Positions 37,142 to 59,910 of a stretch of DNA of 64,000 nucleotides are shown in pieces (the stretch's first letter is position 1; the number at the start of each line of letters is the position of its first letter). The stretch comes from an uncultured Nitrososphaerota archaeon (GTDB taxonomy: Archaea; Thermoproteota; Nitrososphaeria; Nitrososphaerales; Gagatemarchaeaceae). Where the stretch lies: assembly GCA_963703285.1 (NCBI GenBank), contig OY969807.1:2016001-2080000 (forward strand). Direction: 5' to 3'. The position numbers and the translations under genes are program-made. Below the pieces are notes generated by a model. It was not told the origin of the DNA. It did no database searches and saw only the letters and a program-made list of their open reading frames with translations.

Positions 37142-37397
37142 TTCAGAAGCCGCCGGCACTGTCCAAGTATTAAGGATGCCCTGACCAAATTCGGGGAGAA
37201 AGTGGCGACTGTCTCTACGGCCCATGGCTGAATTCTCGGTGGCATGTTGGCTTGCTCATTCGTGCTTTGTGGACCACTGAGCTTCATTGCGGGAGTGACT
37301 AATCTCAGTGAACGGGGACCAGAAAGCATTGAGTCACGGATGAGTCCGGCAACCTTCGCGCCAGGATAATGAGTCGTTTTGCAAAGTGTTATAGCGA

Positions 37398-37808: not shown

Positions 37809-37885
37809 AGCGGATTCCTCACCGCCTGCCGTGGTTCCTGCAGGTGAACCCCGCGCGGCGCGCTCGATCAGGTCGACCGCCCCTC

Positions 37886-38573: not shown

Positions 38574-38691
38574 GGAGTCTCACCCTAGACGGAGTGCCTC
38601 TGATATAAAGTAGGGGCCCCGGACGAGCCTGGCTATCGTAATCGATACTGTTCAAGATATAGTTATATAATCTATTCCTGCGGCCCTCGCC

Positions 38692-39336
38692 ATGCAAGAA
38701 GGGAGACGGTCCCCATCTCAGAGGGAGGGCGCGGGGCTCTTTGAAGGCGGGAGCCCACATCCTCAGGGCGCTCCGAGGGGTCTGCTTCAGTTCTACGCCA
38801 TTCTTAGCATCGCTCGCAAGCCGATGCGAGGCTACGACATCATGAAGGAGATCGAGAGCAAGACCGAGGGAGCCTGGCGGCCCGGACCCGGGGCGGTGTA
38901 TCCCGTGCTCCAGAAGCTCGCGAATCAGGGTTACATCAAGGTTCAGAAGGAGGCGAAGGGTGGCGCGCCCCGCGTCCTCTACGAGATAACGCCTGCCGGG
39001 CTCGAGAACATCGCCAACGCCAAGAAGATGATGAAATCGTCCACGGAACGGCTGAACCTCATGGGGAGGCTCTTCATCGACGTTATGGAGCCGGAAGACC
39101 TGGTGAGGTTCGTCCTCAACTCTTCGCAAATCCATATCGAGCTCGTCCGCATGATCATCGAATCCGAGAGAAGCGGCCTCAGCGACGAGGACAGGCTGTT
39201 CGTCCTTCGCCAGTACAGACTGAACCTGGAGAGGGAGCTTACCCACGCGGCGGCCCTGATCAAGAAGATGGAGGGTCGAACCGCCTCCGGGAATCACCTC
39301 GCCGGGGAAGCGGCGTCAGAGGGGAGAGGGCCTTGA
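38692..39336 (+). CDS. PadR family transcriptional regulator
   Basis: PMRGYDIMKEI, PGPGAVYPVLQKL, YEITPAG. Confidence 0.92.
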   Translation: MQEGRRSPSQREGAGLFEGGSPHPQGAPRGLLQFYAILSIARKPMRGYDIMKEIESKTEGAWRPGPGAVYPVLQKLANQGYIKVQKEAKGGAPRVLYEITPAGLENIANAKKMMKSSTERLNLMGRLFIDVMEPEDLVRFVLNSSQIHIELVRMIIESERSGLSDEDRLFVLRQYRLNLERELTHAAALIKKMEGRTASGNHLAGEAASEGRGP

Positions 39337-40388
39337 GCGCAACCACGCTGGCCTCGCCCGACCTGACCGCCGGAGGCGAGCCCATGATCAGGGTCGAGAG
39401 CCTGACGAAGAAGTTCGACGACTTCGTGGCGGTCGACAGCATCTCCTTCGATGTCAGGAAGGGCGAGATATTCGGCCTGCTCGGTCCCAACGGTGCAGGC
39501 AAGAGCACGACCCTGCGGATACTCTCCACGCTGGCGAGGCCCACCAAGGGGACGGCTTCGATTGGGGGCTACGACATCGTCAGGGACGACACCGAGGTTC
39601 GCAAGCTGATCGGCATCGTCTCCGAGAAGATGATAATGTACGATCGCCTGACGGCGAGGGAGAACCTCTGGTTCTTCGGAAGCCTCTTCGACATTCCTAG
39701 GGACGTGATGAAACCAAGGATCGACGAGCTCCTGGAGCTGGTCAAGCTGACCAAGTGGAAGAACGCACAGGTGGGGACGTTCTCGACCGGGATGCGGCAG
39801 AGGATGAACGTCGTGAGGGCCCTCCTGAACATGCCCCGCGTGCTGTTCCTGGACGAGCCGACCCTGGGACTGGACCCCCAGGCCTCCGTCGAGATTCGGG
39901 AGTTCGTGAAGAAGCTCAACAGGGAGAACGGGACCACGATAATCGTGACGACGCACACGATGGTCGACGCCGACATGCTCTGCGACCGCATAGCCATCAT
40001 CGACCACGGGAGGGTGGTCGCCCTGGACACCTCGGGCAACCTGAAGAAGCTGGTCTCCGGGGAGGACTCCACCGTCCTGAAGCTGGAGATCGCAAATCTC
40101 ACGACCGACCTCCTCGTGTCCCTCCGAACGCTCGACTGCGTGAAGTCCGCCTCTCAGGAGAGCTCCACCCAGATTCGGGTGATTGCGCGCGGCGACGACG
40201 CGTTCGACAGCGTGATTGACGCGGTGAGGAGGAAGGGAGGGAGGATAACGTCGATGGAGAACGTGCAGCCGACGCTCGAGGACGTCTTCCTGCACCTGAC
40301 GGGGCACGAGGTGAGAGACAGCGCCGACAGGAAGATCCCGCTGCAATCGCGCCATGGATTCGGCGCCGGGCCAGGGAGGATAAGGTGA
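39333..40388 (+). CDS. ABC-2 (DrrA-like) ATP-binding protein
   Basis: GPNGAGKST, FSTGMRQR, LDEPTLGLDP, PTLEDVFL. Confidence 0.95.
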   Translation: MSATTLASPDLTAGGEPMIRVESLTKKFDDFVAVDSISFDVRKGEIFGLLGPNGAGKSTTLRILSTLARPTKGTASIGGYDIVRDDTEVRKLIGIVSEKMIMYDRLTARENLWFFGSLFDIPRDVMKPRIDELLELVKLTKWKNAQVGTFSTGMRQRMNVVRALLNMPRVLFLDEPTLGLDPQASVEIREFVKKLNRENGTTIIVTTHTMVDADMLCDRIAIIDHGRVVALDTSGNLKKLVSGEDSTVLKLEIANLTTDLLVSLRTLDCVKSASQESSTQIRVIARGDDAFDSVIDAVRRKGGRITSMENVQPTLEDVFLHLTGHEVRDSADRKIPLQSRHGFGAGPGRIR

Positions 40389-40394
40389 GTCCGG

Positions 40395-41594
40395 ATGGGG
40401 GCCAAGAGTCTTCTTTCGCACAGCTTCAGAATCGCCTGGAAGGACCTGGTCGAGCTCAAGAGGAACAGGTTCGGTCTGGTCCTGCTCATCGTGATGCCCC
40501 TGTTCATGCTGGCGCTGGTCGGTTTCATCTACCCGACGAGCGGGAGTTCGGTCAGCAACGTCCCCGTCGCGGTCGTCGACCTGGACACCGGTTACCACAA
40601 CTCGACGATAGGGAGCCAGACCTTCGTCTCGGTCCTGGACCAGATCAACGGCAAGACGGGCATGATGAAACTCTCGTCCGTGCCGAGCGTCTCCGACGTC
40701 AGAACCTCGATCCAGAGCGGCAAACTCGAAGGCGCGATCATAATCCCGAGCAACTTCACGCAAAGCCTCCTCAGCGGTAAGCAGGGCGCGGTGACTATCA
40801 TGACCGACCAGTCCAACCCCCAGGTGTCCGCCACCATTCAGACGCTCTTGTCCGGGGTCTTCGGCGAGATGAGCACGGCGTTAGCCCAGCAGAACGTCCA
40901 GGCTCTCAGTCCGACGGTCAACGCGACCGACTCCCTGGCGATAGTCCAGCCATACAGGGTTCAGATGCAGGGCGTCGTTCCCGGTGCCTCCAACTACTTC
41001 GACTTTCTCGCTCCAGGCATAATGGCCATGGTCGTCATGATGAGCGTCATGACCGGCCTGCCCGGTGCGATATCTCAGGAGAAGGAGATCGGCACCATGG
41101 ACGGCATGATGGTGGCCCCCATAAACAGGCTGTCGGTCATCCTGGGGAAGACCCTCAGCCAGACGGTCAGAGGAATGCTCCAGGGAGCCATAATCCTGGT
41201 TCTGGCGGTCCTGCTGTTCGGCGTGACCATACATGGGAACGTCATCCTGGTCTTCGGATTGCTTCTGCTGGGCGTGTTCAGCTTCGTCGGTCTGGGGATA
41301 GTGCTTACGTCGTTCGCGAAGGACCAGCAGACCGCAACGATGCTGATGACCACGCTGATGTTCCCGATGATGTTCCTCAGTGGTGTGTTCTTCCCGATAC
41401 AGCAGATGCCCTGGTACATGCAGGACATATCGAAAATCCTTCCGCTCACCTACGCATCGGACGCCCTGAGGAAGGTCATGGTTCTGGGCGCTGGGATAGG
41501 AGACATCACCACGGACCTGGCGATTTTGATAGCTTTCGGAGCTGTGCTGACCGCGATCGCCGTCCCCGTGTTCAGGCGACAGATGACAAGGTAG
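40395..41594 (+). CDS. ABC-2 type permease
   Basis: EKEIGT..MVAPI, FLSGVFFP, LPLTYASDALR. Confidence 0.93.
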   Translation: MGAKSLLSHSFRIAWKDLVELKRNRFGLVLLIVMPLFMLALVGFIYPTSGSSVSNVPVAVVDLDTGYHNSTIGSQTFVSVLDQINGKTGMMKLSSVPSVSDVRTSIQSGKLEGAIIIPSNFTQSLLSGKQGAVTIMTDQSNPQVSATIQTLLSGVFGEMSTALAQQNVQALSPTVNATDSLAIVQPYRVQMQGVVPGASNYFDFLAPGIMAMVVMMSVMTGLPGAISQEKEIGTMDGMMVAPINRLSVILGKTLSQTVRGMLQGAIILVLAVLLFGVTIHGNVILVFGLLLLGVFSFVGLGIVLTSFAKDQQTATMLMTTLMFPMMFLSGVFFPIQQMPWYMQDISKILPLTYASDALRKVMVLGAGIGDITTDLAILIAFGAVLTAIAVPVFRRQMTR

Positions 41595-42229
41595 CCATTT
41601 CAGGCCGCCATCTAGACGGGAAGAATCAAAGCTCCCCCAACTGGAACAGGGGACTCGAACAGAAGACTGAAGCAGGTGGTCTCCCTGGCCTCTAGACTCA
41701 TCTCTCAGTCTTCGGAGCCAGTCTTGGTATTTGGGAGTTCTTCCAATTGTCTTATCGACTGCGTCAAGTTTCACTCAATCTTCGACGCCCAGAACATTCC
41801 GAGCTGAAACAAAGGACGGTCGACGAAGTCCTCCCGCCGCAGAGGGGCTCCTTCCGCGCCCCAAAACTCATTTTACAGAGCTCCCAAATTTCCCAAGTTA
41901 TTGATACAAATGACTCGAAAAATTGCGTTGGCTACCCTCTTCTCCCCAATCCTATGAATATCCTTCATTTAGTAATTGCCTTTCTTGCAATTCCGGAATT
42001 CGCATAACATATGCTAGGTTGTTAAATACGTTTAATCTAACTCGTACGTGAGTTGGTGACTGCCTGAAGGGGTCCGATGGTGGAGAACCTCGCTTCAAGC
42101 CCGCTATCTTTGACTTCGATGGACCGCCAACCTCACCCGTTTCCTTCCTAGCACGGCTAGCATCAGGCCCGTCGGTCTGCGCCGCGCCCAACCTCAAGCG
42201 GGTCGAACTGGACGACGGGCAAGGACAGA

Positions 42230-45200
42230 TTGGTGAATAGAATGGATATCAAACCAGAAGCAACGGCCAACACGATAGTCCTCCCGGCTCCTAGCCAGGA
42301 GGTCCAGACGCTGCCCCCGAGGTTCATCGTCGGGCAGCTGCCGGTGACGCTCGTACAGAGCTGGGCGCCGGCGTGGTTCTATAGCGCGCTCAACTGGCTG
42401 GGCAAGTCGTACTACGACGCGAGCAACGTCCAGCAGAGCTTCAACGACTACATGGTAGGGTCGGACGTCGACCCCTACTCGAGCCTCGGCTCCACGCGCC
42501 TCTTCGTCATAACGAAGCTCCAAGAAATATTCCAGCTCACCCTGGCCTCGGACTCGAGCTCCAACGCGCCGCTCTCTGGCGGGACCACGTATCCGAACAC
42601 CGATGAAGGGATCCTGCAGATGTACCAGGCCCTCTCGGCGAGCCCGATCTTCTCCTCGGTGAACTACTGCTACGTCCCGGGCCGTCTCGCCGCCGACGTC
42701 AACCCCGACGCCTTCGCGACGTTCGCGGTCGCCGAGGGCCTCGAGAGCGGCTACGACACGGCCTCCGGGCTGAGGACCATCGTTCTCGGCTCTGCCGTCT
42801 CCCAGGTGGTCCCCCTCGACGACTTCCTCCAGACCCAGAACGAGCAGATCTACGACGACAGCCCCGTCATAGTGCCGCTCGTCACGGCCCTGGTCTACGA
42901 CTTGACCCAGTACAACACGGTGGGGGCTACGACCTTCCTCCTCCCCGTCTACTACACCCGCGACCAGGTCTCGCCGGCTACCTACTACGTCAGCCGGCTG
43001 GGGTCGACCACGACGGTGGCCGGCCAGACCGCTAACTGCGGCCAGACGGCGCTCTTTCCGGGCGGCGCCGGCTACAGCGGCGCGAGCGCGACCTCGCTGA
43101 CCGTGCAGACGACCTCGGTCGTCTCCTCGGGGGGAGAGACCTTCACCACCTACAACTTCGGGACGGCGACGGCTGTGACGACCTCGACCCTGAGCCCGAG
43201 CGTGGAGACGGGCGTGATGTCGCTGACCTACTCCGGTTCCTCGCCCTCCACCATCTTCGCCGCCCAGGGGATAATCGGCTTCTACCGCGATTCGTCCTGG
43301 ACCACGAGCCTCGGCGTGCCCATCTACGACTTCGGGGCGCAGAACTCGTCATTCACCGCCGCGACGCAGGCGCTCGTCACGCCCGCCACAGTCTACGACC
43401 CCACGAATCCCTTCCTCAACGGCGGGTCTCTGCCGAACGTCATCCACAAGCTGACCCAGGCAGCGTACGTCTACTCGACGGACGAGCTGGTCTCGATACT
43501 CGATACCGCCATCGCGGCGAAGGACACCGACAACGGCGCCGGGCTCAGCGTGACGACGGCCGCGCTCGAATTCGACATGAGCTCCAACCCCGCGGCTTCA
43601 GTCGTAGACCAGCTCACGGTGCCGGTGACCGTTACGGTAACTACGACTCCGACGCCAGTGAAGCTTCCGACATTCAACGCGACGACGGTGGCCGTCAATG
43701 AAGCGGGAATCAGCGCTGCGGCGGCCCAGCCCGCGACCGGCGTGGCGGTCCTGGCGCAGTCCCCCGCGAACGCGTCCGTCGCGCCAAAGACCATGGATGT
43801 GGCCGCGCCCGCAAAGTCAGCGGCGATGGCGGCCGCCCCGACGGCGACCATCAGCAAGACGCTGGCCACCGTCAACCTCTCGCAGTTAATCGGCTCCGGC
43901 GCAAGCGCCCCCGGCCAGAGCCAGCTCGGCCCGGTGACGGTCCAGGTCGGACTGAGCGCGTCCATCCCGCGCGAGGCGCTCAGCGGCACGGGCATCACGG
44001 GCATCGAGATAGGCACGGCGTTCCCCCAGCAGCCGCTCGGGGCCGGCGCGGCGTTCGAGGCGGTGACCGCGGGCATGGCTTTCAACCTGATGGACCGCCA
44101 CAGCGCGACCCCGTCTCTGGCTCCGGTCGACCTCGCGACCTCGACGGCCGGCTACGCGTTCGCCGACGGGGTGTACTACGTGCTCTCGCTCACAGGGGCG
44201 AACCTGACGGTCCGCGGTTCCGACGATTCGTCCGCCACCAGCGAACCCACCCTGCCGGGCTCCCCCGACCCCAGCCACACCTACGTCGGGGCGATGGTCT
44301 ACTCCTCATCCACGGCGTCCGTCACCCTCTACCCCCTGCTGCAGCTCACGCTGCCGGCACCGAGCGTGGGCTCTCACGGCGTCCTCCAGGGCGGGATCTA
44401 CAGCGTCCGCCTGACCTTCGGTGACGCGAACAGCCAGTACGACGTCGTCGACTCGACGCAGACGGTCCTTGACTCCAACGTCACCGTCCCCAACCCCAAG
44501 CCCGCCGATGGCTCGAACCCGCAGTCGGGCGACCTCTACTTCGGCAGCTTCATGGGCGGGGCGAGCGTGATGACCGTCTGGTCGGTCCCCGTCTTCCTCG
44601 CCGTGGAACCGTCGCAGCTGCCGGGCGCCAGCTACAACGGGACCATGACACTGGACGCCCTGACGAGCGGCCTCCCCGGCTACCAGCTTCAGATCACCGA
44701 CAGCTCGCTCTTCGTCTACTCGAACATCAACGTCGACACCGACGCCATCGGCTCGGTCAGCGCCAAGAACGTCTACCTTGCGAGCGCTGTAATCAACTCC
44801 TCCCCCGACGACCTCTCCCCGGAGGCCTTCGCGCCCTCCAAGCTCGTGATGGGGCTAGTCCGCCAGGCCCAGATGGGGACGGTCCTCAAGTACGTCTTCG
44901 TGCCCGAGGACGACAGCGTCGTCATCGGCGGGACGCGCTACATGCTGAGCGTCATCAACCTGGGGGACGTCGACGGCGACCCCAACTCCCGACCCTATCC
45001 CCCCGTCTACTGGCCCCAGATGCAGTACTGGCAGTTCGCCAACCGCCACGACCCGTACCTCGCCGTCGAGTACACCGGAGCGACCGAGCAGGACCGCATC
45101 AGCCAGGCTCAGTCCGACACGGTCCGGATCGGCCTTCAGACGTCCCAGGCGCAGGAGCCGATGCAGATGTACCTGGACACCGCCGGGATGACGGTCTGGC

Positions 45201-48200
45201 CGATCTACCCGTTTCCCTACGCGACGTCCACGCAGAGCGTCGACCAGGGGAAGCTAAACGTCATCACGAGCACCATCCGGCAGATCCTCGCAACGACCTT
45301 TCCTACGACGGCCCCGTTCGCCGCTGGCCCCCTGGACGCGGAGCAGATCACCCTTCCCGCCTCGCTGCAGCAGAACAACCCGTTCACCGCCGGGACGGCG
45401 GCCACGACGAACCCGAACCCCTCCGCCAGCGACGCCATCACCCAGCTGGTGTCGGAGCCCTCCACCACCGGCCTTGAGGTGATGAACCTCAGCCCCGACC
45501 TCGTCGCCAACACGTCCGTCACGGACATCGGCGCGCGGCAGAGCCTCCAAGACCTGCAGTCCCAGCAGACGGACGCCAGCCTGTCCAGCGGCAAGAGCCT
45601 CGCCCCCCAGGTCGACGTCGTGCAGGTTCGCTCCACCACCGCGGCTGCGACGACGGCCGCCGTAGCGTTCGGCCGCCAGTTCCAGCCCATCTTCGGGTTC
45701 TCCGTCTACAACCCCGGCACCGGCGAGGCCTACATCGTCGAGGTGGTCGACGCGGACCTGGACATCCCGGACCAGCTCCCCGACCCCACCAAGAACGTGA
45801 CCTACGACCCCTACTACGTCCGCGTGGTCTTCCTCAGCAACCTTACCTGCTACAACATGTCGATAATCGTCCCGTCGTTGGTCCGCGACCAGTACCAGTA
45901 CTTCGCCCATCAGGGGACCTCGTACCAGAACCTGCTCAGCAAGACGAACGAGCTCGACATCGGATACGTCTACTCCCTCTACGACAACAGCAACAACTTC
46001 GACAGCCTGAACTTCAGCCCCTATCCCGCCACCACACAGCTCTCGTCGCTCAGCCCGTCGGAGACCTACCTCTACACCAACTTCCCATACTCCACCAAGC
46101 AGACCACTCTCTTCAGCCCGACGTCCCTCTTCGCGAGCTACTCGACCTTCGTGGAGCCGGTCGCGACAGGGGAGACCGCGACAATGGACGAGAGGTTGGA
46201 GGTTGAGAAGTCCGTGGCGTTCGACGCCTCCAAGATCTCCTTCATCCGATTCGCATCGCCCCCTGCGTACTTCGTCTGCAGGCGCGAGAACTGGAACGCG
46301 GACTGCCACCTGATGCAGGCCACGAATCCCGAGGGAACTTCGATCTACCTGGCGTTCGGAGGCGGAGACCTCGTGCCCTTCAGGCTGGACGACACCGTCA
46401 CGGTCGACAAGCGCCAGCCCGCGCACATGTACGAGTTCACCTACACCTTCGCCGACCAGCAGTACGACTCGGCGCAGACGATCTCGGTGGCAAACACGCC
46501 CTACGTCGTCGCCGTCGCTACCAACAACGGTGTCACATCGTACACCAACTTCTCGATCAACTCCACTTCGGGCACGGCCGACATCCAGATAGGCGGCAAC
46601 GCGACGCTGCAGTTCCCCACGCAGGTCTACATCGTCGGCGAGGCGAGCACCACGCTGACCTCGATTTCAGATATCAACCTCGCACTGGGCACCGGATTCA
46701 CCGACACCGGGGACTTCCTGAACCAGGACGCGCAGGGGAACCTGACGAATCAGGAATTCCAGGTACTCACCTACAACAACCTCGTCTACCTGATTCGGGC
46801 GGTCTCCAACGTCAAAGCGCTCGCCGCGGTAGGCGAGATCAAGATTGACAAGAAAGGCAAACGCGTGGTCGTGGCCGAAGGCGCGGTCTCGGGACTCCTG
46901 ATCGACACCTACGTCCCCGCGACGACGGGCAACCTCGCCCTGGCGCAGGGCGCGCGCTACCAGCGCAGCGGGCTGCAGTTCTTCGGGGCTTCCTACACGC
47001 CCACGACGATGCAGGACAGCCTCGACACGCTCAACTTCACCAGCATCACGGGTGGCACGTTCTACGCGCCGACTATCTTCATCCCCATCCCCGAGCTCGA
47101 CAGCACCAAGGGCTTCGTCGCCAACCTCTCCGACTACCTCGGGCAGCAGATCTGGACGTTCATCTATCCCGAGATCGTGGCGCAGCCAGACACCACGGTC
47201 AACGGCGTCAAGTATCCGAATGGCTACAACCTGGACGGCGACGGGAAACCGATACTCAGCCTTCAGAAGCTCCACTTCGTCTACGACCCCATAGCCGTCA
47301 TGTTCACCACCAACGACCTGGCGCACAAGTACCCTCTGCTCCCCAAGGTGCAGATCCTCGCCCTGACCAACGGACAGATTCAGGAGGGCATCTGCTGGCG
47401 CACCGCCAACGTCCAGCCCCAGCGCCTTCCCCCGGCGAACATCCTCGCCCAGCAGATCCTCACGGAGGGCCTAGTGATGGACGCGACCAACATCGTCTAC
47501 TCCTCCCACAACCGCTCCGTCATCACCGCGGCCGGCCCCGGCTACATGGGCATGTCAGTCAACAGCTTCGTCTCCGTCTCAGGGGTCGTCTACAACATCG
47601 AGGAGGGTGCCCTCTCCGAGTCGACCGACCAGACCGATCAGGGCCTCATATCGGCCGTCGCCTCCGTCTCGAACATGCTCGTCTCAGTGCTCTTCGACTA
47701 CGACAACAACGACCTCGGCACCCTGACCGACTACGACGAGCGCCTTTCGACGAAGGGCGTCGTCTTCCTCAACGGTTACCTGAGCGCCACGGGCTACAGC
47801 TTCTCGAGCCCCGACCACTTCGACGTCAACGACGTCCTCCCGTCCCAGGTCCCGCTGCTCGAGGAGGTCGCCGACATCTTCGGCTGGGACGTGGCCTTCT
47901 ACAACATGGACGCCAGCCTGCCTCGTCAGTTCTGGAGCCTGACCTACGACACCTTCACTGCGCCGGGGCTGCCGAACTACACCCCCAACGTCCCGCCACC
48001 GCCCGTGGACCCGACCTTCTTCAACCGCACCCGTTCGCTCGTCCTCAGCCTGCAGAACCCTGTCCGTCCCACCCAGCTCGGTCTAATGGACACCTACAAC
48101 TCCGTCGTCTCGGCCAACCTCCACCTTGAGAACGGCGTCACCGGCTCCATCTTCCTCAGCAAGAAGGCGGACCGCGACATCGCCTCGATTGGGTCCAACG

Positions 48201-51200
48201 CGACCGAGCAGGGGGCCAACCAGGTCTACGGACTCCCGACGAAATACGACTTCTTCATCTTCTCCAAGGACCACTACTGGACCCTGAAGGGCGCCTACTT
48301 CGAGCTCGTCGACAACGGCTACGCGATGTGCCTGGTGGACGACGGCTCGGGGACGGGGACCAAGGTGGCCAAGTACTACATCGACCAGGACGGCAACTAC
48401 AATGAGCTGCTCAGCTACGTAATTTATACGCCGAACGGGGGCATCATCGAGTCCTCAACCTTCGCGGTCAAGGTGACGCTTGGCGCGCCGGCCAACCCGG
48501 GCGCGACCCCGGCGATCCCAGAGACGCCAAACAACGTCAACCCCCAGGACGTCGTGGCGCAGATAAATAAGGTCTCGAACCTGGTCTACGCCGCGTTCGG
48601 GCCCTCCTCCCCGGGACAGCCGCCGGCGTACATCCCCATCCAGGCCGTCGGCGGCGAGGTGCAGGCCACCCCGATCCTCGGTCCGCCGGGCTTCAACGGG
48701 TACGCGCTGAACGTACTAGGCGCGAACAGCCAGCCGGTCCAGATCTCGCAGATATTCTCCGCCAACGTCGCCTACAACATCGCCGGTCCGACGACCATCG
48801 TCCCCTACAGCCAGAAGAGCGAAAAGGCGGTGCCGTTCTACGGCTCAATCTCGCACGGGCTGGACAAGATGGTCCCCGTCGCAGTCCTCAGGTCGGCGGA
48901 CCTGACCTCGTACATACCGGCTACGACAGTCCCAGCAGGGCCCACAACGGGATTGTACGGGGGGAATGGGCTTGGCGGACTCATCGGAACGCCCTTCAGC
49001 TTTGCATTCCAGGGGTCCGGAGCAATCCCGCCCGCCATCGCCAGCAACCCGACCCCGGGGACGACGATGAAGGCGGACAGCCAGAATCTTCTACACATTC
49101 AACGCCGTGAGCGCCACGGTCATGGACTCCACGGGCAAGTCGGCGAGCGCCAGCGGCGGCCAGTACTTCGTCGACACGACGGACCCGGCGAACCCCATCT
49201 ACGGTGTCGTCACCCTCCCCAAGTTCCTCTTCAACGGGAACACTTACACGGTCAACCTGAGCACAACGCTCTCCGACGGCGTGACCTCCAAGTACACGCT
49301 GGTCGTCGGTGGGCAGAGCTTCCCCTTCAGCTCCGGCAACCAGGTCACGGCCGACAAGACGACGTTCACCTTCAACAAGGCCGTCGGACAGATCTACACC
49401 GTCACCTACGCGGCGGTCGACGCACCCGCCGGGAGCGAGGCTCCAACGCCGATCACCTTGACACCCTTCTCCATAGCCGCGGGCGGCCTCCCCATCGCGA
49501 TCATCGACGTCTTCAACAACCCGGGAGGGCTGAAGGACATCCTCCTCGGCGTGATAGGACGGCTGTACACCTACGACCCGATCAACGCCCTCGTCACCGT
49601 CAGCGAAGGGGCCACCACGACGGTTGTCCCCCTCATGACGGGAATAACGGTCACATCGAACAGCGGCTACGGCTACGTGATCAGCATCAACGACAACGTC
49701 TACACCGTCAACGACGGCCCAACCTATCCGTACCCCGCCTCCACGATCGGCACGCCGGCCGCTTACCCCCTGATGACGGCGCCGCAGATGTTCACGATGG
49801 GCGGGAACTTCTACACCTTCGACCAGAGCGGCGGGAACTACGTCAGCGTCACGGGCAACGGCCAGACCTACCCCGTCAACCTCTACCAGTTCTCGATCAA
49901 CGGCGAGGTATACATCATCAACACCAACGTCCAGCCAAACACCGTCGTGGGCGGAGGGAACGTCTACACGATGGAGGCGTCCAACACCCAGTTCGAACTC
50001 AACGGGGTGCAGTACACCATCATCATGAAGACCTCGCTCAGCGGTGCGACGGTCTCCGGGCAGTTCAACATCTCTCAGGGGAATGTCGTCGTAATCGAGG
50101 ACTACGTCTACCAACTCGACACGCTCAACGGGCAGATCGTAGGGAACGGCACGACGTACCCACTGACCACCTCGGGGTTCACGTACACGATCACGACCTC
50201 GAACAACAGCTTCACCGTGACAACCGAGCCGAACGCGGCGACGGTCACGATAGGGGGCGTGGTCTATCTAATCAACAACACCACGGTGGTCGCCGACGGC
50301 ATCACCTACCCCATCCTCGTGTACAGGAGCTTCGTCGACGGCGGGACGACGTTCGACATCGGGCTGGAAGGCACGGTCTCCGTCCCTCCGCCGCTCTCGC
50401 TGACGGGGTCCGCGCCCTACACCGGGGCGACCTTCACCGACGGTTCCGAGACCTACACAGTGAACGAGTCGGCCGCCTTCGACGGCACGTCCTACTACCT
50501 GATGACCGGGACGCCGCCCCAGTTCGCCACGGCCGGCCTGACCTACACGGTCCGGACCGACGGCGTCTCCATCGCCGCAGGGCCTGCGCCGACGTTCATC
50601 GTCGACGCGACCGGGCCGCTATCTCCCAACCAGTTCACCTTCGGGGCTGAGACGATCTACTTCGGGCGGACCACCGACGTGGCCGCGTTCGACGGGACGA
50701 ACTTCTTCGCCATCGCGGAAAACGAGTTCACCGACACCAACACCGGACTCACCTACAGCATCAGCGGGAACACCGCGGTCAACCAGGGCAACAGCTATGA
50801 GATCTACAGCAACCTGGGCCAGAGTCCGTACTTCGAGGTGCCGGGCGGCCCCACCTACTACGTCAACGTCGCCGTCGCGGATTCGGGCACGGCGACGGGG
50901 AACATCTACAGCGTCTTCCCCATCAACGGCGGGGTCTTCACCATCCCGCTCGTCTACACCATCACGGTCTCGGGCAGCACCGTGACGGTGAGCGCGTCGA
51001 CCTTCACGGGCGGCCCGACCGCGACGTCCACCCTGACCGCGGCCGCCGGGTCGCTTACCGGCGGATACTTCACCGACCCGGTCACGAAGATCACCTACAC
51101 CTGCGTCGTCGACGCCGGCGTCGTTACCTTCGTGGACTCGAACAACGCGGTCTATCCCTACCCAGCGCCCAGCACGACGAACACATTCGTGGCCTCCGTG

Positions 51201-54200
51201 GTCGTCACCACCGCGGTCACCCTGGCCGTCGACAGCGAGGCGACGCCCGATGTCTACCCGGTCCTCAGCAACCAGTTCATCGTCGGGACGACGACCTACG
51301 CGGTCAACGTGTCGGTCGCGTACGAGAACGCCTCGGGGCCCTACTTCCCGATGGTCAACGGCCAGTTCATCGTGCCGAGCACCCCTCCCGTCTCGAACCT
51401 GGCATACGCGGTGCAGGGCGGGTCGGTCACCAAGGGGTATGTGATTTCGGCGGACGACGAGTTCTCCGCCGACGGGAACGTCGTCTACACGGTCAACGAC
51501 GTCAACGTCGTCAGGGCGTCGAACCAGGCCACGCTCACCGGCACAGCCCCGAACCAGACCCTCACATATGGATCGTTCACCTACACGCTCGACACCACGA
51601 CCTCGCTAGCGGCACTGGAGCCCGCGGGGCTCACCTACGACACGAGCACCAGCCAGTTCACCGTGTCCTACAACGGCGTCTCCGTGACCTACACGGTCGG
51701 ATCCCAGACCGTCACAGACAACCGTCATCCTGCGGACACCTTCCCGTCGACCGTCTCTGGAAGTCAGGTCACGTTCACCGACACGGTCAGCGGCATCACC
51801 TTCTCCTTCGACGACAGCGGGGACAACCAGATCAGCGTCGGGTTCCCCTACACCAACCAGTTCTTCGTGGACCTCCTCAACGGCATCACATACTATGTCG
51901 ACGGGACCACCAGCACCGTCGAGGCCATCTCCTACGTCCCGGAGACCACGCAGTACGGCTTCGTAGCCGCCAACGGCCAGACCTACCTGATCCACTACAA
52001 CGACGTGGGCGTCGTCTTCCCCGTCATCTCGGGGGCCAACGTCAACGCCGGCATCGCCACCGTCGGCTCGGACACCTTCACGGTCAACATCGACCAGGTC
52101 CAGCCGTCGTCGGGTGCCGCTGGCATCCCCGTCAACCTCAACTCCTTCGAGATCAACGGCAACCTCTACACCATCACGGGGACGCCGACCGGGACGGACT
52201 ACTCGGCGTGCAAGGTCGTCGGGGACGCGATCACGCCCAAGAACTTCACCTCGGCGAACACGTTCGTCCTCACCGACCCGACGGTCACCTACACGCTGCA
52301 GCTCAACTCGGCGAACCTCCCCGCGGCGGTGGTCGCAACCTTCGCTGTCAGGCCTAGCCAAGACCTGATTGTCGTCAACGACGACGTCTACGTCGTCACC
52401 TACAACACGACGACCACCGGGTCGCTCCTGGGCCAGGGCCAGGCATCGATCGCTATCACCAACTCGAGCTTCACCCTGACCAACCCCTTCGACTCGACGA
52501 AGGCGAAGTTCGTCTTCGACGACCTCGACATCTACGACGCCGGCTCGGTGGTCGGGCAGTTCGCCGTCTACCAGATGCCCACGTTCTTCATCGGCAACGC
52601 CACCTACACGCTGAACCCTGTCGACCTGCTGGTGACGGACAACAACGACCGGCCGTACCCGTTGCTCCCGAGCCCGATGATGTTCAGCATAAACGGCTTC
52701 AACTACGTCATCGACACGAACCGCACGCCGCACGCAATCGTCGGCAACGGCAACGTCTCTCCTCTCTCGACGGACGTCACGGTCCAAAACGGGCTGCCGG
52801 TACCCAACTCCACTTTCACGCTCAACGGCCTCGTCTACGCCTACGTCGAGGACACTACGCACAACCTCCTCGCGGTAACGGGGACGAAGAGCTACATGAT
52901 TGCCCAGCCGGCGCTGACCTTCAAACTGGATTCCAGCCTCGTGTTCACCATAAGCACGACGCCTCCGGCCGCTGGGAACTACGTAGGGACCATGGCCCCG
53001 ATCGGGACAATCACCGCCGCGGGCCCGCTGACCCTCAACCTCTACGCTGGGACGCCGGAGTCGGGGAACGCCGACTTCTTCACCTACAAGAACGTGCTAT
53101 ACACACTGGTAGAGTCCGAGGGCGTCTACATCGCCGTGCAGAAGACCTACACGGTCTACGCGTCCACGCCGACCGCCACCCAGCAGCAACTCGCGGTCTT
53201 CGACCTCGCCGGCACAACGTACATGGTGACCGACGGGACGACAGCGGGCACAGCGACCCCAGCTGGGATAAACCCCGGGACCCTGTGGGCGGCCACGTCA
53301 ATCTCGGCGACCCCCCCCGAGACGCAGTTCGGCCTCGTCTACGGGTTCACAGCCCAGCCCATAAGCGTCTCGCAGTCCGCCACCACCCAGGTCTTCCAGT
53401 TCGTGGTTAGCACCACCGTCAGCAGCATCAGTACCACCACCAGCAGCGGCAGCACCAGCACCGGCAGCACCAGCACCACCACGGTCAACACGCTCTACGA
53501 CATCGTCTACACGCCCGGAAGCAACGCGAACGTGGTCAAAGTCGACGTCCCCGACTTCCTACCGACCTTCACCCAGAGCTGGCCATTCAACTTCCTCACA
53601 TCCTATCCGCTGACGTTCGAGACGGGAGGGTACAACGCGTTCACGACCTTCGTCTCCGAGACGTCGACCCCCAGCGAGAGCTTCGCGGGGGCCTACAGGA
53701 CTCCGGTGATCTCCACCGACGGCGCGGTCGACTCCATGCTGGGCACCGAGGGCGACTTCAGCCTGGAGTTCTGGCACTCTCTCCCGCTGACGGCGGTCAA
53801 CGACTACCACCCGTTCACCTACTATGCTAGTAACCAGAACCCCCTCGTCTACTACGTGGACGTAGACTTCTTCAACGGCTACAACATCTTCGTCCGGATC
53901 AACAACACGGTCATGCAGGCCGTGACCACGCCCCCCGTCTTCACATCCCGATGGCGCCACTTCGCCCTCACCTACTCCCAGCCCTACGTGATGCTCTGCC
54001 TGGGGGCGGGCTTCGAGGTCAAGGACGGGACGAACTACAACTTCAACCGCAACTTCAGCATCGCCATGACCTTCAGCGTCACAGACGTGAACACGCAGCA
54101 GGGACTCCTCTACAAGGGCACCGCGTCCTCCATCACCTCGCCCGAGCTCAGCTTCTCGTACCAGGTCGGCGTCTCGGGGGGTAACGTGACCTTCCAGCTG

Positions 54201-57200
54201 ACGGACACTTCGCTGACGGACGGTCAGCCTACCCCAAGTACCATCTTCCAGGGACCATCGATCAAGGCCAAGACCTTCTACCAGGTGATCATCGTCAAGC
54301 AGACGACGACCACATCGGGCAGCACCAACTCCGACGGTACGACGGACCCCTACGGGCAGCCCTTCGACGTCAGCGAGCTGACACCAGCTACGACGGGTGG
54401 GACGAGCGCGACCATGACGGCACCGCCGACCTCGGGCAAGGCGCCCGTCACGTTCTCCGATGTCAAGGGCACCGGAAAGACACCGAAGCTGGACTCGCTC
54501 ATGACGGCGATCGGGGCGGCCCAGACCGGGCAGAGCTACTCGGTCTCCATCTCGGTCCGCACCGTCAACGACGACGGCGGCTTCGGCCAGTGGACGACCG
54601 TCAATCTGACGCAAGCCGTGACCAGCGACGCCGGGCTCGCGGTGAACAACACAGGATCCGCGGCCCTGTTGATAGGTCAGGCCTATGACACCTCGGGAAT
54701 CTTCTGGCCCATGGGTTCATCGGATGGCCTTGTGGGGAACATCCAGAACGTCTACCTGTTCAACGGTGCGATCAACCCTCAGGGTATCAACACAGCCGCC
54801 GGGCTGGTCGATATCTCGAGCGCGACCTCGAACGATCTCATCAAAGCCGGCCTCGTCGGCTACTGGCCCGCGCAGTACGACCCGAACGGCGTAGTGAACA
54901 ACACCGTCGACCCGGACGGCGTCGCCGTCTCCAGTAACATGTTCCTCGCCAAGCTCGCCCCGCTCAAGGGCCAGGAGCTCCAGGCGACGAGCCTGTACAT
55001 CGACGGATACTCCATGCCCCTGGAGCTCGTGTCCGGCAGCGCGATCCCTTCCTCGATGGTCCCGTACCCCGGCGGTTCCTCGCTCCTCGAGTTCAACGCA
55101 GGCGCCTACAAGCTCGAGGAGATCAGCATGTGGAGCATGTGCCGCCAGCAATACCAGGTCCTTGACGACATGTTCGGGCGCCTCATCCCGACCAACGAGC
55201 CGTCACTTGTCCTGTACCTGAGCGCGTCCTTCCAGGTCCAGGCGATCGACGCCCCGATCCTCCCGATGAGCAAGTACATCGATGACGTGGTCGTCAAGAA
55301 CGCGGTCACCTTGGTCGACCCCGTGACGTTCTCGCCGGCATCCCTGGACCTGGTCGGCTCCCCTGACGTGGGGACGTGCGGCCCGCTGGTCACACCAAAC
55401 CTGTACACCCCGCCCGGCGTTGCGCTGACCGTCTGCGACACGGTACCGTACATGACCACCTACTCCATCACGCTGAACAGCGTGACGCAGACGCTCGCGG
55501 GGGAGATCAACGAGGCGTACGTCTACGTCAACAACTCCGTGCTCACCCTCTACGCCGGGAAGATGGTCGGAGAACTGGTCCTCACTTGGGTGTCTCAGGT
55601 TCAGGGCGACGTCCAGCTCATGGGGTACGTCGAGGGCGCCCCGCCGGCCCCGATGGCCAACCTTACCAACAAGTCCTCGTACGCAGGCGCAACCTCGGTC
55701 ACTTTCACTATGCCGACGTCCGTCAGCCTGAAGTACCAGAACTCGAACGATTTCTCGAATGAGGTAGCCTGGAATATCTCCGACGGCATAGGCGTCAAGT
55801 TCGGCATCGCCGCGGACTTCGCCCCCTTCGGATTCGGCATACAGGCCGACAAGGCAATTCTGGACGTCAGTTTCGACGCAACAGAAGGGGGTGACATTTC
55901 GGACAAGACCACCGAGAGCGAGTCGCAGCTCACATCATCGAACAACGTGCAGGAGTCGTACAAGTACACGGTGAAGATGGAGGGGACGCTCGGTCCCTTC
56001 ACAGGGGACCTATTCATGGCGAGTCTGAACACGCTCACCACGCCGTCCACCACCGTAGGAGTCTCCGCCTCCAAGACCGCCATCCTCCCCAACCCGAACC
56101 TGGGCGGCTTCACGACATCAAACCCACCCGCTCCCCTGCCGAAGTCCGGCGTGACCGAGGAGAAGTTCGGGCAACGGATGTACACCCCCTCGCCCTACGG
56201 CCAGGCCTTCGTAATCTCGCAGACGCTCGACGTCTACCAGCAGACGCTGCTCCAGACCAACACGGTCTATGGTTACGTACAGGTACCGAACTCACAGATT
56301 CCCCCTGACCTGAACATCGTCTCCTTCAGGCTCAACAGCAGCTACATCCGGCCAGGGTGCCTCGACGGCGTCATCGGGTACGTCTACAACCCCGCGAGCC
56401 TGCCGACGGGCGCGCAGACCTACACGACCTCGACGGGCGAGATGCAGGTCCTCTACGACGGGAACTTCTCGCAGGGGGAGGTCGGCAGCGACGCGAGCTA
56501 CATGCAGGTCGTAGAGGCGTACCAGATGAAGAAGCAGATCGACCAGGAGACCTTTACCGCCATCGCCGCCTATCAGACGGCCTACAACAAGCAGGGCCTC
56601 CCGGATGACACGAGCCTGCTGCCCCCTCTGGACTTCTACGACGAGTACGTCTGGTCATCGCGGGGCGCCACGCAGGAGGTAAAGCACACCTATTCGACCT
56701 CGTACGAAGAGGTGTATACGACGGAGACTCTAAGCAAGGTGTCCGCCAAGGTCACCCTGAACGCGAAGCTCTATGGCGCGTGCATCACCTGGATGGACCT
56801 GAAGGGCAGCTGGGAGAAGACGATAAAGAGCACGAACAAGTACATCTACACCACCAACAGCAGCACCTCCTTCGACGTCACCGCCTCTTTCGACGGCATC
56901 GAGAACGACACCCAGATGCGGTACGCCTCCAACAACGACGCCCACTTCGTGATGAACAACAACTCGATGTTCAACCCGAACAACCAGAGCGGCCTGAACC
57001 TCATCATCGGGTCCGACGGGCTCGTCTACAACATCGTCCCCTCCGTCTCCTCGGGCGCCGGCCTGCCCCTCTCCAACAACATCGACACCAGCATGACGTT
57101 CACCCAGCCCCAGCCCTCGTACACGTCGGGGAACGCAACGGGGTTGACAGGCAACTTGGAGCCATACGACCGCCCCGGCAAGACGAACCTCTTCCGCACT

Positions 57201-58484
57201 TACGCGTTCTTCCTGCAGCCCACCCCTCAGAACGGCGAGGACTTCTGGAACACCGTGATCGACCGCGTATGGATGGCAAACAGCCCCGACCCGGACGCGG
57301 TGGCGTTGAACGCGGTGAAGAACAACCCCTCCGTCCCCTGGCGTCTGCTCTACCGGGTAACCTACTCTGAGCGCTTCCTCCCGCCCATCTCGACCGAGGC
57401 GGCCGTGGTCCCCCAGATCACTCCGGTCATGGCGGTCCCAGTCCTGAACGCGGCTTCCGACTTCCTCTTCACGGCGCCCGGGACCACGCCTGTCCCACCC
57501 CACAACCCGGCGAACGACATCGAGGCCAACATCGTCCTCGCAGCTCCCACAGCCAATGGCGCGAGCGCTGGGACGGTCCCGACTACAGGTTCCGGCGCGG
57601 GCCAGCCGATCCTTCCCAACAACGTGATCCCGTTCGACCTTGTCAAGCCCCCGACCCAGGCGATCGTGAACTGGGGCGACACCAACAATGCGAAGCTGCT
57701 CGGCCAGCTGATTACCTCCGTCCTCGGGCTGAACGTGCTCGCGATGTCGACGCAGGTACTTCCGGGGTCGACGCTGGTCTCCCAGGTGATGGACCCCGCG
57801 AGCGGAGGGGTGCTGTACAGCATCTACACCGATCCGAACGGCCTGACGGTGAACGTCCCGACGAACTCCGGAATAACCGTCTATCAGGACGTAAATGGCA
57901 ATCCCATCCAGTACTACGACGGCAAGGAGTTCCACTCGCTCCAGGCCGACTACATCCCGACGACCGACGGGACTGTGATGTACTACATCCAGCCGCCCTC
58001 AAAGTACGACCAGAGCGCGTTCAACCTCGTCGGCGACTACGACCTCTTCGGCCACCCGGGCGACCAGTGGCGCTACTACCTCGTCTCCGGGATGAGCGCC
58101 AACATGACCTCGGAACCGACCGTCACGGGCTACGGTCCCTTCCTCTCCTCGACCGGGGCGTCGCCGTACACCGGGTTCACGATCGCCTCTTCGCAGCACG
58201 CCGCCGATGGCTCCAACCACGTGAAGGGGTACGTCCTCGTCCAGGGCGTCCTCCAGTGGCCCAACCTCAACAGCAACGCCGAGACGTTCGCGGACGTGCA
58301 GGTCTACAAGTCGATGAGCCTTCTCGATACATTCCCGATCGGTGACCCAGAGGTGCTCACCTCGTTCTTGGAGGCGCAGTATCCCGGCGCGCCGTTCACG
58401 GGCAACGACGACATCGACCAGGTCTTCGCGAGGAACGTAGTGTCGTACTTCAACGCCTCACAGCAGGCACTGATTCCCGAGTAG
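42230..58484 (+). CDS. Giant (~5417 aa) T/S/V-rich beta-strand protein with LamG-like domains; one frameshift at about 49085
   Basis: Coding-style codons in frame 1 to about 49085 and in frame 2 from there to 58484 (frame 2 has a stop at 49068-49070); GDFSLEFW and WRHFALTY LamG-like motifs. Confidence 0.8.
53409..53484 (+). repeat. Low-complexity AGC/ACC tract encoding an S/T linker
   Basis: STTVSSISTTTSSGSTSTGSTSTTT. Confidence 0.7.
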
Positions 58485-58599
58485 GCAATCTGCAAAGTCC
58501 CGAGATTCACCATTGCGGAGTCCCGATTCGGGCCGCTGTCGATGTGGGTAGTCGGTCGGCTACGTTGCCGCTTATTAATCCCGCCGAACTTACAAGTCG

Positions 58600-58926: not shown

Positions 58927-58995
58927 GCTTTACAGCGCGTTACGTAGCTCTCGACTTATAATCCTCGCCCGGGTGCTTGGTCCAGGAGTCGAACC

Positions 58996-59910
58996 ATGAG
59001 CGAATCGAAGCCACTTCCGGACAAGGGGAACAAGGACAAGGATCTCTCATCCGTCTTGATACAAGCCGAGACCACGAGGGTATTCGTCAGCGGGGTAAAC
59101 ATGCGGAAGAGTCCCGGGGACGTCGCGGAGCTGATGCAGTCCATCAGGGAGAAGGGCATACTCGAGCCCCTGCTCGTCAGACCCGTAGAGAGTCGCTACG
59201 AACTGATCGTTGGGTCCCGGAGGTTCGAGGCGGCGAAGCGTCTGGGCCTGAGGACGGTCCCGGCCGTGGTGAGACCTATGCTTGACGAAGATGCTCTGAT
59301 CATCTCCCTTGTGGAGAACATCCAGCGCAAGGAAGTGGAGCCCGAGGAGGAGTACAACGCCCTGATGAAGCTCAAGGGTCTTAACCCCGCCCTCTACTCC
59401 ACGCCGGACCAGCTGGCCAGGGTGATTGGCAAGTCGCGGCAGTACGTCGAGGACAGAATCGCCGCGGTCGAGACGGTCAATATGATCAGGAGGGGGACGA
59501 AGAAGTCGCCCATCGCCGTCAGGCAATCCCCTACGATGGAGGAGAGGAAGGAAGGTGTCCTGCCAGTCAAACACGCCTCGTTCCTACACGAGGCCGAGGA
59601 GGCGCCCACGGTCCAGAGGCTTCCGGAGGAGAAACGCGCTAAGCGACTCTTCGCGCTGGCCGAGACGATCGCGGAGCTCCCGGCGCCTGAGGCACGGAGG
59701 GTGGTGGAGCAGTTCGTCAAGGCACCTCAGAGGCCCATGGAGGAGATTAAGAGAGAGACCGAGAGGCTCCGCTCGTTCAAGCTCGACCTCGTCTTGGACC
59801 CGAGGGTCGCCGACGGCCTCAGGAAGGCAGCCAAGGAGAGGGGGACGACGATGGAGGCTATAGCAACTCTGGCGATTCACGCTTGGCTCCGGCAAAACAA
59901 CTACAGTTAA
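58996..59910 (+). CDS. ParB/Spo0J family protein with C-terminal RHH-like tail
   Basis: ELMQSIREKGILEPLLVR, LIVGSRRFEAAK, SLVENIQR, LARVIGKSRQYV. Confidence 0.9.
   Translation: MSESKPLPDKGNKDKDLSSVLIQAETTRVFVSGVNMRKSPGDVAELMQSIREKGILEPLLVRPVESRYELIVGSRRFEAAKRLGLRTVPAVVRPMLDEDALIISLVENIQRKEVEPEEEYNALMKLKGLNPALYSTPDQLARVIGKSRQYVEDRIAAVETVNMIRRGTKKSPIAVRQSPTMEERKEGVLPVKHASFLHEAEEAPTVQRLPEEKRAKRLFALAETIAELPAPEARRVVEQFVKAPQRPMEEIKRETERLRSFKLDLVLDPRVADGLRKAAKERGTTMEAIATLAIHAWLRQNNYS

Follow-up and report, generated by a model that had tools for sequence, protein, structure and literature searches.

A 5,413-codon gene in a soil archaeon encodes a member of a giant protein family with LamG-like segments and an undescribed C-terminal module

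Among the known proteins closest to the one considered here are two groups. The first comprises giant secreted adhesins of Gram-negative bacteria that carry no signal peptide (such as LapA, SiiE and the Marinomonas ice-binding adhesin). These extend over thousands of residues, are acidic and poor in cysteine, and combine a beta-rich repeat stalk with ligand-binding domains near the C-terminus. The second comprises proteins of 2,300–3,700 amino acids (aa) that are annotated only as “LamG-like jellyroll fold domain-containing” and have no assigned function. Here we analyze a 64,000-nucleotide stretch of DNA from an uncultured Nitrososphaerota archaeon (the window; positions 2,016,001 to 2,080,000 of contig OY969807.1, assembly GCA_963703285.1), which contains a single giant gene of 5,413 codons. 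Its product appears to resemble the adhesins in each of the respects named, and it has a conserved C-terminal module in common with the LamG-like jellyroll proteins, with about 25–30% identity over the aligned module. It belongs to an uncharacterized family of about 5,300 aa, encoded by a sporadic lone gene in acid-soil bacteria of several phyla.

A single reading frame and its bacterial family

42242..58484, plus strand: giant gene, a single open reading frame (ORF) of 5,413 codons without the spurious base at 49085; ATG at 42242, stop codon at 58482-84
49085..49085, plus strand: extra base, one A of ‘cagaatc’, which splits the frame; an assembly error, as judged from short-read contigs and homologues
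42232..42236, plus strand: Shine-Dalgarno-like GGTGA, 5 nucleotides (nt) before the ATG at 42242, read from the sequence

As assembled, the gene is divided between two overlapping plus-strand ORFs, 42230–50650 (with a mechanical TTG start at 42230) and 49107–58484, offset by +1. The upstream frame turns into arginine- and histidine-rich nonsense past ...TTMKADSQN (at about 49088), and the downstream frame is shut by a TGA at 49068–70 and makes sense from 49089 on (FYTFNAVSATVMD). Twelve homologues run uninterrupted through the site of the frame change, where they read KADD-S/T-V/I-FYTFNAVS, and their length there is that of the window sequence minus one base. The short-read contigs agree. One contig each from runs X1, X2 and X3, all soil metagenomes of one study, covers 48848–49264 with no other difference and omits letter 49085, at word depths of 8.46, 2.5 and 2.9, respectively; the contigs were compared over 48500–49700, and a further run, X4, gave no coverage at 49085. 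Because the three short-read runs lack this base and the homologues are continuous at the site, the frame break is an assembly error of the single-contig 2.25 Mb genome.

An earlier note, made from the letters of the window alone, had proposed one protein of about 5,400 aa after the removal of one base, and had named beforehand a real frameshift giving two genes as the outcome to set against it. The frame of 5,413 codons and the contigs of three runs that omit base 49085 bear out the former and not the latter. A genuine frameshift, be it the mark of a pseudogene, a boundary between two genes or a programmed +1 shift, would account for the extra base standing in the assembled sequence. We nevertheless regard it as scarcely credible, given that the short-read contigs match perfectly apart from that base, that neither half is broken and each aligns collinearly with homologues, and that long-read assemblies split many other family members likewise, at other positions. 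The lesson is that frameshifts in giant genes from long-read metagenome assemblies need a short-read check before a pseudogene is called. The G+C content of the gene is 64%, at which, by our own estimate, the chance of a stop is about 0.027 per random codon; an open frame of 5,413 codons cannot be explained by chance. The GGTGA at 42232–36 is a putative ribosome-binding site.

The last 1,626 residues, used as a query, match 135 proteins at E 0.001 or less. Among the matches listed, 119 are not the protein itself, and 101 of these have lengths of 5,040–5,465 aa; full-length homologues number more than 100, and the length of the family is put at about 5,220–5,465 aa. Aligned with 54 full-length members, the window copy is 56–73% identical over 5,143 columns, almost without gaps. 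The mean identity of members to the window copy ranges from 0.31 to 0.78 per 100 residues, and gaps are confined to six short linkers (residues 401–600, 1001–1100, 1301–1400, 3701–3800, 4001–4100 and 4501–4600). Shorter database entries are pieces of the giant family, mostly from assemblies with frame breaks. No signal peptides are apparent in the N-termini of the family, which vary in sequence before a conserved WAPAWFYSALNWLGKSYYDASN motif.

All named members are bacterial (Acidobacteriaceae, Terracidiphilus, Stellaceae, Acetobacteraceae, Puia, Ca. Cybelea and Dyella acidisoli). Dyella acidisoli is an isolate, and its copy is labeled ‘beta strand repeat-containing protein’; Acidobacteriaceae metagenome-assembled genomes (MAGs) carry the gene on contigs of 1.77 Mb, 470 kb and 293 kb. 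No up- or downstream gene is conserved among six bacterial loci and the window, and eight metagenome loci have unrelated housekeeping neighbors, such as class II ribonucleotide reductase, H+-pyrophosphatase and fumarase. Within one Acidobacteriaceae-level family, the gene was found in 1 of 201 sampled genomes, the starting one. Two ideas about its origin were dropped: a phage or virus, as an IMG/VR scan found no relatives of the giant protein, and a small replicon, suggested by many contigs of 17–20 kb, as long contigs and housekeeping flanks show chromosomal copies. A literature search, with supplements outside its scope, found no paper on the giant family or the module; the part of PMC10640624 consulted mentions lateral transfer of ATPases, not this gene. 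The sequences are already public as hypothetical proteins; they contain an undescribed domain and have an unusual distribution across two domains of life.

Two Acidobacteriaceae-related observations concern the state and number of copies. In one Acidobacteriaceae MAG, the locus G002:C18:102388-104282 (L094, L097) corresponds to the N-terminal region, has many in-frame stops and is mostly 33–45% identical; this copy is possibly decaying. The MAG G004 (L093, L095) holds two copies on different contigs, and one of these (G004:C21) has, to either side of the gene, a repeat of about 160 nt (94% identical as protein).

The 5,413-residue protein is rich in T (11.7%), V (9.3%), S (9.2%), A (8.5%), G (8.1%), N (6.0%) and Y (5.4%). 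K+R amounts to 3.4% and T+S+N+Y+G to 40%, and the protein has a net charge of -237 and 15 cysteines. Beta-rich extracellular proteins typically show such a low K+R and high T+S+N+Y+G. Nothing in the protein resembles a signal peptide or an anchor, as even its most hydrophobic 19-residue stretch averages 1.69 on the Kyte-Doolittle scale. The T/S/V/Y/N/G-rich composition and the lack of an N-terminal signal or C-terminal anchor had both been read from the letters beforehand; residue counts confirm the one and the hydropathy maximum the other.

Searches of both halves against Pfam, NCBIfam, PHROGs and PADLOC gave nothing usable. Pfam and NCBIfam sequence models detect no Ig-like, PKD, CARDB or S-layer domains in the giant protein, no HemolysinCabind (RTX) or Big-type repeats, and no enzyme or nucleotide-binding family; the ‘only ordinary S-layer/Ig domains’ that the earlier note had set against its own view are therefore not matched by these models. 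VRP1, neuraminidase-like and TcB-binding Tc toxin families are absent at Pfam E 0.01 or less, and the PDB gave no sequence match either. A sub-threshold Pox_VERT_large match, the sole one from the family searches of both halves, was taken as chance, as were three antibody chains (E 0.06–0.3) from PDB sequence searches with three parts of the protein and the profiles A1 and A3; apart from these chains, the PDB gave LamG-type matches alone, in the LamG columns of the superfamily.

LamG-like segments, the C-terminal module and a proposed function

42242..49084, plus strand: N-terminal region, family-specific, 2,281 residues; a variable leader, then the conserved WAPAWFYSALNWLGKSYYDASN motif
49089..53340, plus strand: Thr-rich beta-strand repeat region, residues ~2283–3700; length constant across the family
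53724..55187, plus strand: two LamG-like segments (putative concanavalin-type jelly-roll), residues 3828–4023 and ~4130–4315, with a variable Ser/Thr-rich linker between them
55560..57395, plus strand: conserved C-terminal module, residues 4440–5051 (~610 aa), in no Pfam family
55695..55976, plus strand: predicted long beta-hairpin 1, model residues 46–139; strands 46–76/116–139; conserved AP.G.G tip
56691..56888, plus strand: predicted long beta-hairpin 2, model residues 378–443; strands 378–406/409–443
57396..58481, plus strand: C-terminal tail, residues 5052–5413 (~360); conserved in the ~5,300-aa family; low-confidence model, ends in helices

The N-terminal region (residues 1–2281) has no match in Pfam, NCBIfam, PHROGs, PADLOC, PDB or ESM Atlas, where the N-terminal 2,033 residues gave no usable match, and 43 of 43 matches in its sequence search are members of the same giant family. 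Outside the family, the approximately 3,800 residues upstream of the LamG-like segments show no detectable similarity except for residues 1506–1611, which weakly match the N-terminal domain of a shorter LamG superfamily (independent E-value (i-E) 5.6e-7). The repeat region that follows holds 13 of the 15 F.ING..Y.I-type motifs of the protein; when the whole protein is shuffled, the count is 1.1 +/- 1.1.

LamG-like segments had been suspected at about 53750–55200, and a custom LamG profile, for which 227 LamG domains were taken from 69 superfamily proteins, places them at 53724–55187, even though the Pfam LamG model stays below threshold. On the window protein, this profile matched residues 3828–3913 (i-E 1.7e-6), 3926–4023 (3.9e-3) and 4249–4315 (3.8e-5). 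Of 101 family members, 100 were matched at corresponding relative positions, and of 101 reversed controls none was; phmmer connects residues 3800–4400 with the LamG-rich superfamily. Pfam Laminin_G_3 (PF13385) has no match in the window protein at E up to 5, where only Pentaxin appears (E 0.35), and the close relative P0088 scores 25.2 bits against PF13385, whose cut-off is 27.6. These results support the assignment of the segments as degenerate LamG-like domains, homologous to bona fide LamG and presumably sharing its jelly-roll fold.

The C-terminal module begins with GQ.Q..GY[IV]EGAPP.P..NLT and ends with WR...RVT...R.LPP. Its consensus reads GQ.QFDPQLIGYIEGAPPVPSENLT ... AP.G.G ... GFALVQS.TADVFALRL ... 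NPDIPKDWNII.FPINP.YTKQGTLDG ... SYFKP.EAYALK.RI ... LVNTYVWTA.GGFFAETT ... PGKVDAYRFMTFYL.P ... CWRV.HRVTFVSR.LPP. The motifs reported earlier for this end of the protein lie where they had been placed, FSLEFWHS at 53757, GYVEGAPPAP at 55623 and the GIGVKFGIAADFAPFGFGI stretch at 55785. When the last 974 residues were searched with HMMER against 1.84 billion cluster representatives, 814 clusters (counted at 50% identity clustering) were found at E 0.001 or less, 107 of them at 1e-30 or less. Outside the giant family, the module occurs in the LamG-like jellyroll proteins introduced above, whose carriers include Streptomyces, Kitasatospora, Nonomuraea, Streptosporangium, Actinoplanes, Rubrivirga, Bacteroidota, cyanobacteria and Thalassomonas.

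Of 21 superfamily proteins scanned with Pfam, 18 have Laminin_G_3, in up to six stretches each, and some also have PKD, hemopexin or pentaxin matches, the PKD following the module. In 16 actinobacterial and Rubrivirga loci, the module forms a compact C-terminal block of 569–602 residues; the module proteins examined there have no signal peptides, and the 16 superfamily loci have no conserved neighbor genes. The superfamily profile stops at the C-terminus of the actinobacterial proteins, which thus lack the tail of about 360 residues. By phmmer, the link between the window protein and the superfamily covers residues ~3800–5050 only, besides the weak N-terminal match, and two module-superfamily alignments have 14 or 15 invariant columns, including Q.Q......G..E..PP.P..N. 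The module is a large and widespread domain family with no Pfam entry or solved relative. It stands at the end of many multi-LamG giants of Streptomyces and other well-studied genera, so that a single characterization would annotate hundreds of proteins.

AlphaFold2 models were computed for the C-terminal part only, with 974 residues and 55 alignment rows and with 690 residues and 60 rows. They reached a mean predicted local distance difference test (pLDDT) of 56.3 and 60.6 and a predicted template modeling score (pTM) of 0.49 and 0.57. Both show the same two very long hairpins on a confident alpha/beta core (model residues 1–30, 205–280, 300–380 and 540–610). The hairpin strands are predicted to be 24–35 residues long, and their hydrophobic/polar alternation is conserved over 60 aligned sequences. 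A hydrophobic hairpin with alternating strands had been pointed out from the letters alone; it corresponds to the tip of predicted hairpin 1, with the alternation kept in those 60 sequences. Amphipathic beta-hairpins of predicted membrane-spanning length are needed for beta-pore formers but are not specific to them.

Fold comparison with VIA gave as best match the pIV secretin 7ofh (Z 5.3, 101 residues aligned, root mean square deviation 4.7), followed by other secretins (Z 4.6 for 9u5s and 4.5 for 6ve2), with low scores for MPEG-1 (Z 3.4) and parasporin-2 (Z 3.0). Foldseek matched secretins at E ~1e-4 with a template modeling (TM) score of 0.16 or less, and haemolysin-type pores at E 5e-3 to 5e-2 with TM 0.10 or less, from models of pLDDT 56–61. 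The BFVD fold search of the module model gave nothing meaningful (TM 0.18 or less). The only recurring theme of these searches is the barrel-forming hairpin sheet of secretins and haemolysin-type pores. By sequence, no aerolysin/ETX-MTX2, leukocidin/haemolysin or CDC/MACPF family was found with Pfam or NCBIfam and none in a PDB sequence search. At Pfam E up to 5, the C-terminal region of the window protein and four relatives matches no pore-toxin family, and Pfam Secretin (PF00263) has no match in the window protein. The toxin-like C-terminus of the earlier note therefore remains a hypothesis: a conserved module with predicted alternating hairpins is present, whereas no pore-toxin sequence family is matched and the fold resemblances are weak (Z 5.3 at best, TM 0.16 or less).

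Based on these features, we hypothesize that the protein is a glycan-targeted, membrane-inserting, toxin-like device. We give this statement as a whole a probability of roughly 0.4, and the pore itself a lower one. In such a device, the protein would act outside the cell as a long fiber, whose Thr-rich beta-repeat stalk would bear the two LamG-like domains as lectins binding a carbohydrate target. The two amphipathic beta-hairpins of the module, each of about 30 residues, would form an oligomeric beta-barrel that inserts into a membrane, resulting in a pore-forming or translocating device directed against other cells. Export would follow a route that needs no N-terminal signal. An extracellular role is suggested by the acidic composition, poor in Cys, Lys and Arg and rich in Thr, Ser, Asn, Tyr and Gly, together with the lectin-type domains and the PKD of relatives. 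Membrane insertion is favored because two conserved amphipathic hairpins on a compact core also occur in barrel-forming proteins.

Several observations weigh against this proposal. Pfam and NCBIfam find no pore-toxin, secretin, RTX or Tc family by sequence, and PDB searches with module profiles gave nothing, 40 of 40 matches of profile A3 falling in its LamG columns. The hairpin tips have a pLDDT below 50 in models whose mean is 56 and 61, alternating strands occur in soluble beta-sheets too, and fold scores at this level may reflect a common arrangement alone. No secretion genes are conserved beside the gene in the six bacterial loci and the window. Archaea are not known to have bacterial signal-independent secretion systems, and the protein may do nothing in its archaeal host. 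Finally, the near-gapless stalk is unlike that of typical repeat adhesins and could mean that the protein is a machine of another kind altogether, built with precision.

The next function to consider is that of a non-lytic giant surface fiber or adhesin, which would attach to soil particles, polysaccharide, biofilm matrix or partner cells. The LamG-like domains would then bind glycans, and the module would only anchor or oligomerize the protein in the envelope of its producer, for example as an outer-membrane barrel. We consider this rather unlikely. The size, acidity, low cysteine content and missing signal peptide resemble those of type I secreted adhesins, and the Thr-rich beta-repeat region, the LamG-like domains and the PKD after the module in some superfamily members would all fit, as would the fact that the best fold matches are secretins, structural outer-membrane barrels rather than toxins. 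Against it, Pfam and NCBIfam detect no Ig-like, cadherin or RTX repeats, the repeat region is constant in length among members, unlike most adhesin stalks, and no transporter or anchor genes are conserved nearby; the sporadic distribution suits an accessory weapon at least equally.

An intracellular giant protein that is never exported, such as an enzyme, a scaffold or a cytoskeletal element, would explain why no family member seen has a signal peptide and why no secretion genes lie nearby, as well as the uniform, gapless, machine-like conservation. We judge it very improbable in view of the extracellular-type composition described above, the LamG-like lectin domains and the PKD of superfamily members; enzyme and nucleotide-binding families are likewise missing from the Pfam and NCBIfam results.

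Archaeal host, probable gene transfer and chromosomal surroundings

38631..41598, plus strand: PadR / ABC ATPase (DrrA-like C-terminus) / ABC-2 permease cassette; upstream neighbor, native to the archaeal family
58996..59910, plus strand: ParB-like gene; downstream neighbor, native to the archaeal genus; 79–81% nt identity in the genomes G203 and G431

The host is a Gagatemarchaeaceae-like archaeon whose genome is assembled as a single 2.25 Mb contig, and its EF-2 is 93–94% identical to that of Nitrososphaerales / Ca. Gagatemarchaeum MAGs. When 201 genomes of the order were searched with the C-terminal 994 residues, one, that of the window, proved to have the gene, and none of the 5 sampled genomes of the same genus or of the 40 of the same family did; across the 23 genomes of the archaeal genus, two carry it. 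The gene had been called unexpected in this archaeal group before these counts were available, and they agree. The second archaeal copy (G431:C2:615278-631289; L206, L207) lies on a 714 kb contig that also encodes the EF-2 of G431. It has seven frame changes, possibly long-read errors or decay, and its protein is closer to P0008 and P0006, two metagenome proteins (82–83% identity), than to the window copy (69–74%). The placement relative to ParB differs as well: the G431 gene is found 9.4 kb downstream of a ParB gene that itself adjoins EF-2, and the window gene directly upstream of ParB.

In FastTree trees of two regions, the window copy is nested among bacterial-labeled sequences. The smallest clade with both archaeal copies comprises 20 and 30 of 56 sequences, respectively, and includes sequences labeled Terracidiphilus, Stellaceae and Acidobacteria, so that, on these trees, the two archaeal copies are not sisters. 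Of 116 ORFs flanking eight close metagenome relatives, six match the archaeon, at 25–37% identity, and these relatives are therefore not its kin. The rarity of the gene in the archaeal group is most simply explained by transfer from bacteria to the archaeon, which probably took place twice, with a second species of the genus acquiring its copy separately; the position of the gene in the archaeal chromosome is as assembled. The case for this direction of transfer is limited: it follows from the distribution and from trees that are unrooted and were rooted at the midpoint, and most close relatives are unnamed metagenome proteins. If true, this would be an unusually clean inter-domain transfer of a 16-kb single gene with no helper genes, spanning at least five bacterial phyla and an archaeal genus.

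That all named relatives are bacterial would also be expected if bacterial DNA had been misjoined into the archaeal contig by an assembly or binning error. We hold such a chimera to be highly improbable. Both flanks are archaeal on the same 2.25 Mb contig (cassette 82–85%, ParB 79–81% nt identity), the second genome of the genus carries its copy on the contig that encodes its own EF-2, and the error would have to insert exactly one complete gene. The G+C content at third codon positions (GC3) points the same way: it is 0.90 in the gene and 0.75–0.89 in the host, and that of homologues follows their hosts. A GC3 at host level argues against a chimera and suggests either residence or a donor of similar composition.

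The ParB-like gene appears to mark the right-hand limit of the acquired DNA. The left border is not fixed by synteny, as the region upstream of the gene differs from the window in all of G203, G188, G155, G419 and G431. The ABC cassette is 82–85% identical at the nt level in G155, G419 and G431, with homology ending at 41598; beyond it, gene content differs in every relative examined. The cassette is not part of a system of the giant gene, and with its sharp ends and different neighbors in each of the three relatives, it looks as if it were itself mobile. The adjacency of EF-2 and ParB was found in 1 of 80 EF-2 loci and cannot be called ancestral. The intergenic DNA of the window up- and downstream of the gene has no match in 20 bacterial loci, and a repeat search found no notable direct or inverted repeats flanking the gene.

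The surroundings of the giant gene are variable and rich in mobile elements. A run of mobile-element- or defence-type genes of lower G+C occupies the stretch from EF-2 to the ABC cassette (23076–38000), including ArdC-N-like (23076–23909), Fic/DOC (28110–28508), AAA_13 (32169–33410) and HicB-like (34285–34848) genes and several ORFs of no family; this run looks like an integrated element or a variable island. It also contains a group II intron (25249–27202), with an RVT_1/GIIM/HNH ORF at 25249–27048 and an Rfam Intron_gpII match at 27103–27202 (57.1 bits), at a G+C of 0.50–0.54. In an ORF-poor stretch, a 53-codon ORF (35545–35706) encodes a small, very basic, coiled-coil-like peptide and has no Rfam match; the surrounding ~200 nt (35504–35707) are 74–81% identical in five same-genus genomes and lie 4.8 kb from ParB in G203. 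Between the giant gene and ParB, a 139-codon ORF (58542–58961) of no Pfam family and with no counterpart in the bacterial loci has a repetitive N-terminal part (three 12-nt repeats, 58612–58656) and a hydrophobic C-terminal half. Farther away, 728–2641 encodes an adenylate/guanylate cyclase catalytic domain fused to TPR repeats.

These surroundings bear on whether the gene is merely a passenger, acquired recently and still intact but neither expressed nor exported, with no function for the host. We would not lean towards this explanation, although it has an appreciable chance of being right. It would account for the presence of the gene in so few genomes of the genus, its place in a variable region beside mobile-element-type genes, the missing signal peptide, and the seven frame changes of the G431 copy, which may, however, be long-read errors. 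It is harder to reconcile with an ORF intact through 5,413 codons, with the host-level GC3, which suggests residence or a similar donor, and with the SD-like GGTGA before the ATG.

A more far-reaching version of the toxin-like device, which we consider doubtful, is a new class of self-contained giant toxins of about 0.55–0.6 MDa by length, with a new beta-hairpin module for membrane insertion or translocation, found across bacterial phyla. It would include a single 16-kb gene that moves on its own between phyla, and from Bacteria to Archaea at least twice, as well as a non-ammonia-oxidizing soil archaeon with a bacterial-type weapon or adhesin. If the transfer did occur, it raises the problem of how the protein could be put to use by an archaeon that lacks bacterial secretion systems.

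Comparison with known systems

Compared with the secretins (pIV, PilQ, InvG and GspD) and haemolysin-type beta-pore-forming toxins in the pore state, the module is predicted to have the same kind of long paired hairpins with amphipathic alternation. There is no sequence relationship, the core between the hairpins has no match, and secretins carry a signal peptide and N-domains, both of which the window protein lacks. A further lead comes from ESM Atlas, where the clusters nearest to the C-terminal 1,631 residues combine LamG with Thiol_cytolysin (PF13385 + PF01289), with a score of 0.87 (110 of 256 features) that lies below the mark of 0.9 and serves as a lead only. Pfam Thiol_cytolysin was not found in the window protein or four relatives at E up to 5, and the feature likeness to these proteins, which resemble cholesterol-dependent cytolysins, may come from the LamG part alone.

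The giant adhesins, despite the likeness described at the outset, have RTX or Ig-like repeats not found in the window protein, and their length varies with repeat number, whereas that of the window family is fixed. The six bacterial loci also show no conserved adjacent secretion genes, such as the ABC, membrane-fusion and TolC genes of type I secreted adhesins. The LamG-like jellyroll proteins have the module in common with the window family and, like it, no assigned function. Their LamG domains are matched by Pfam, whereas those of the window family are degenerate and missed by it. The window family is twice as long and adds three stretches to the common plan: about 1,400 residues at the N-terminus, about 1,400 in the Thr-rich repeats, and about 360 in the C-terminal tail.

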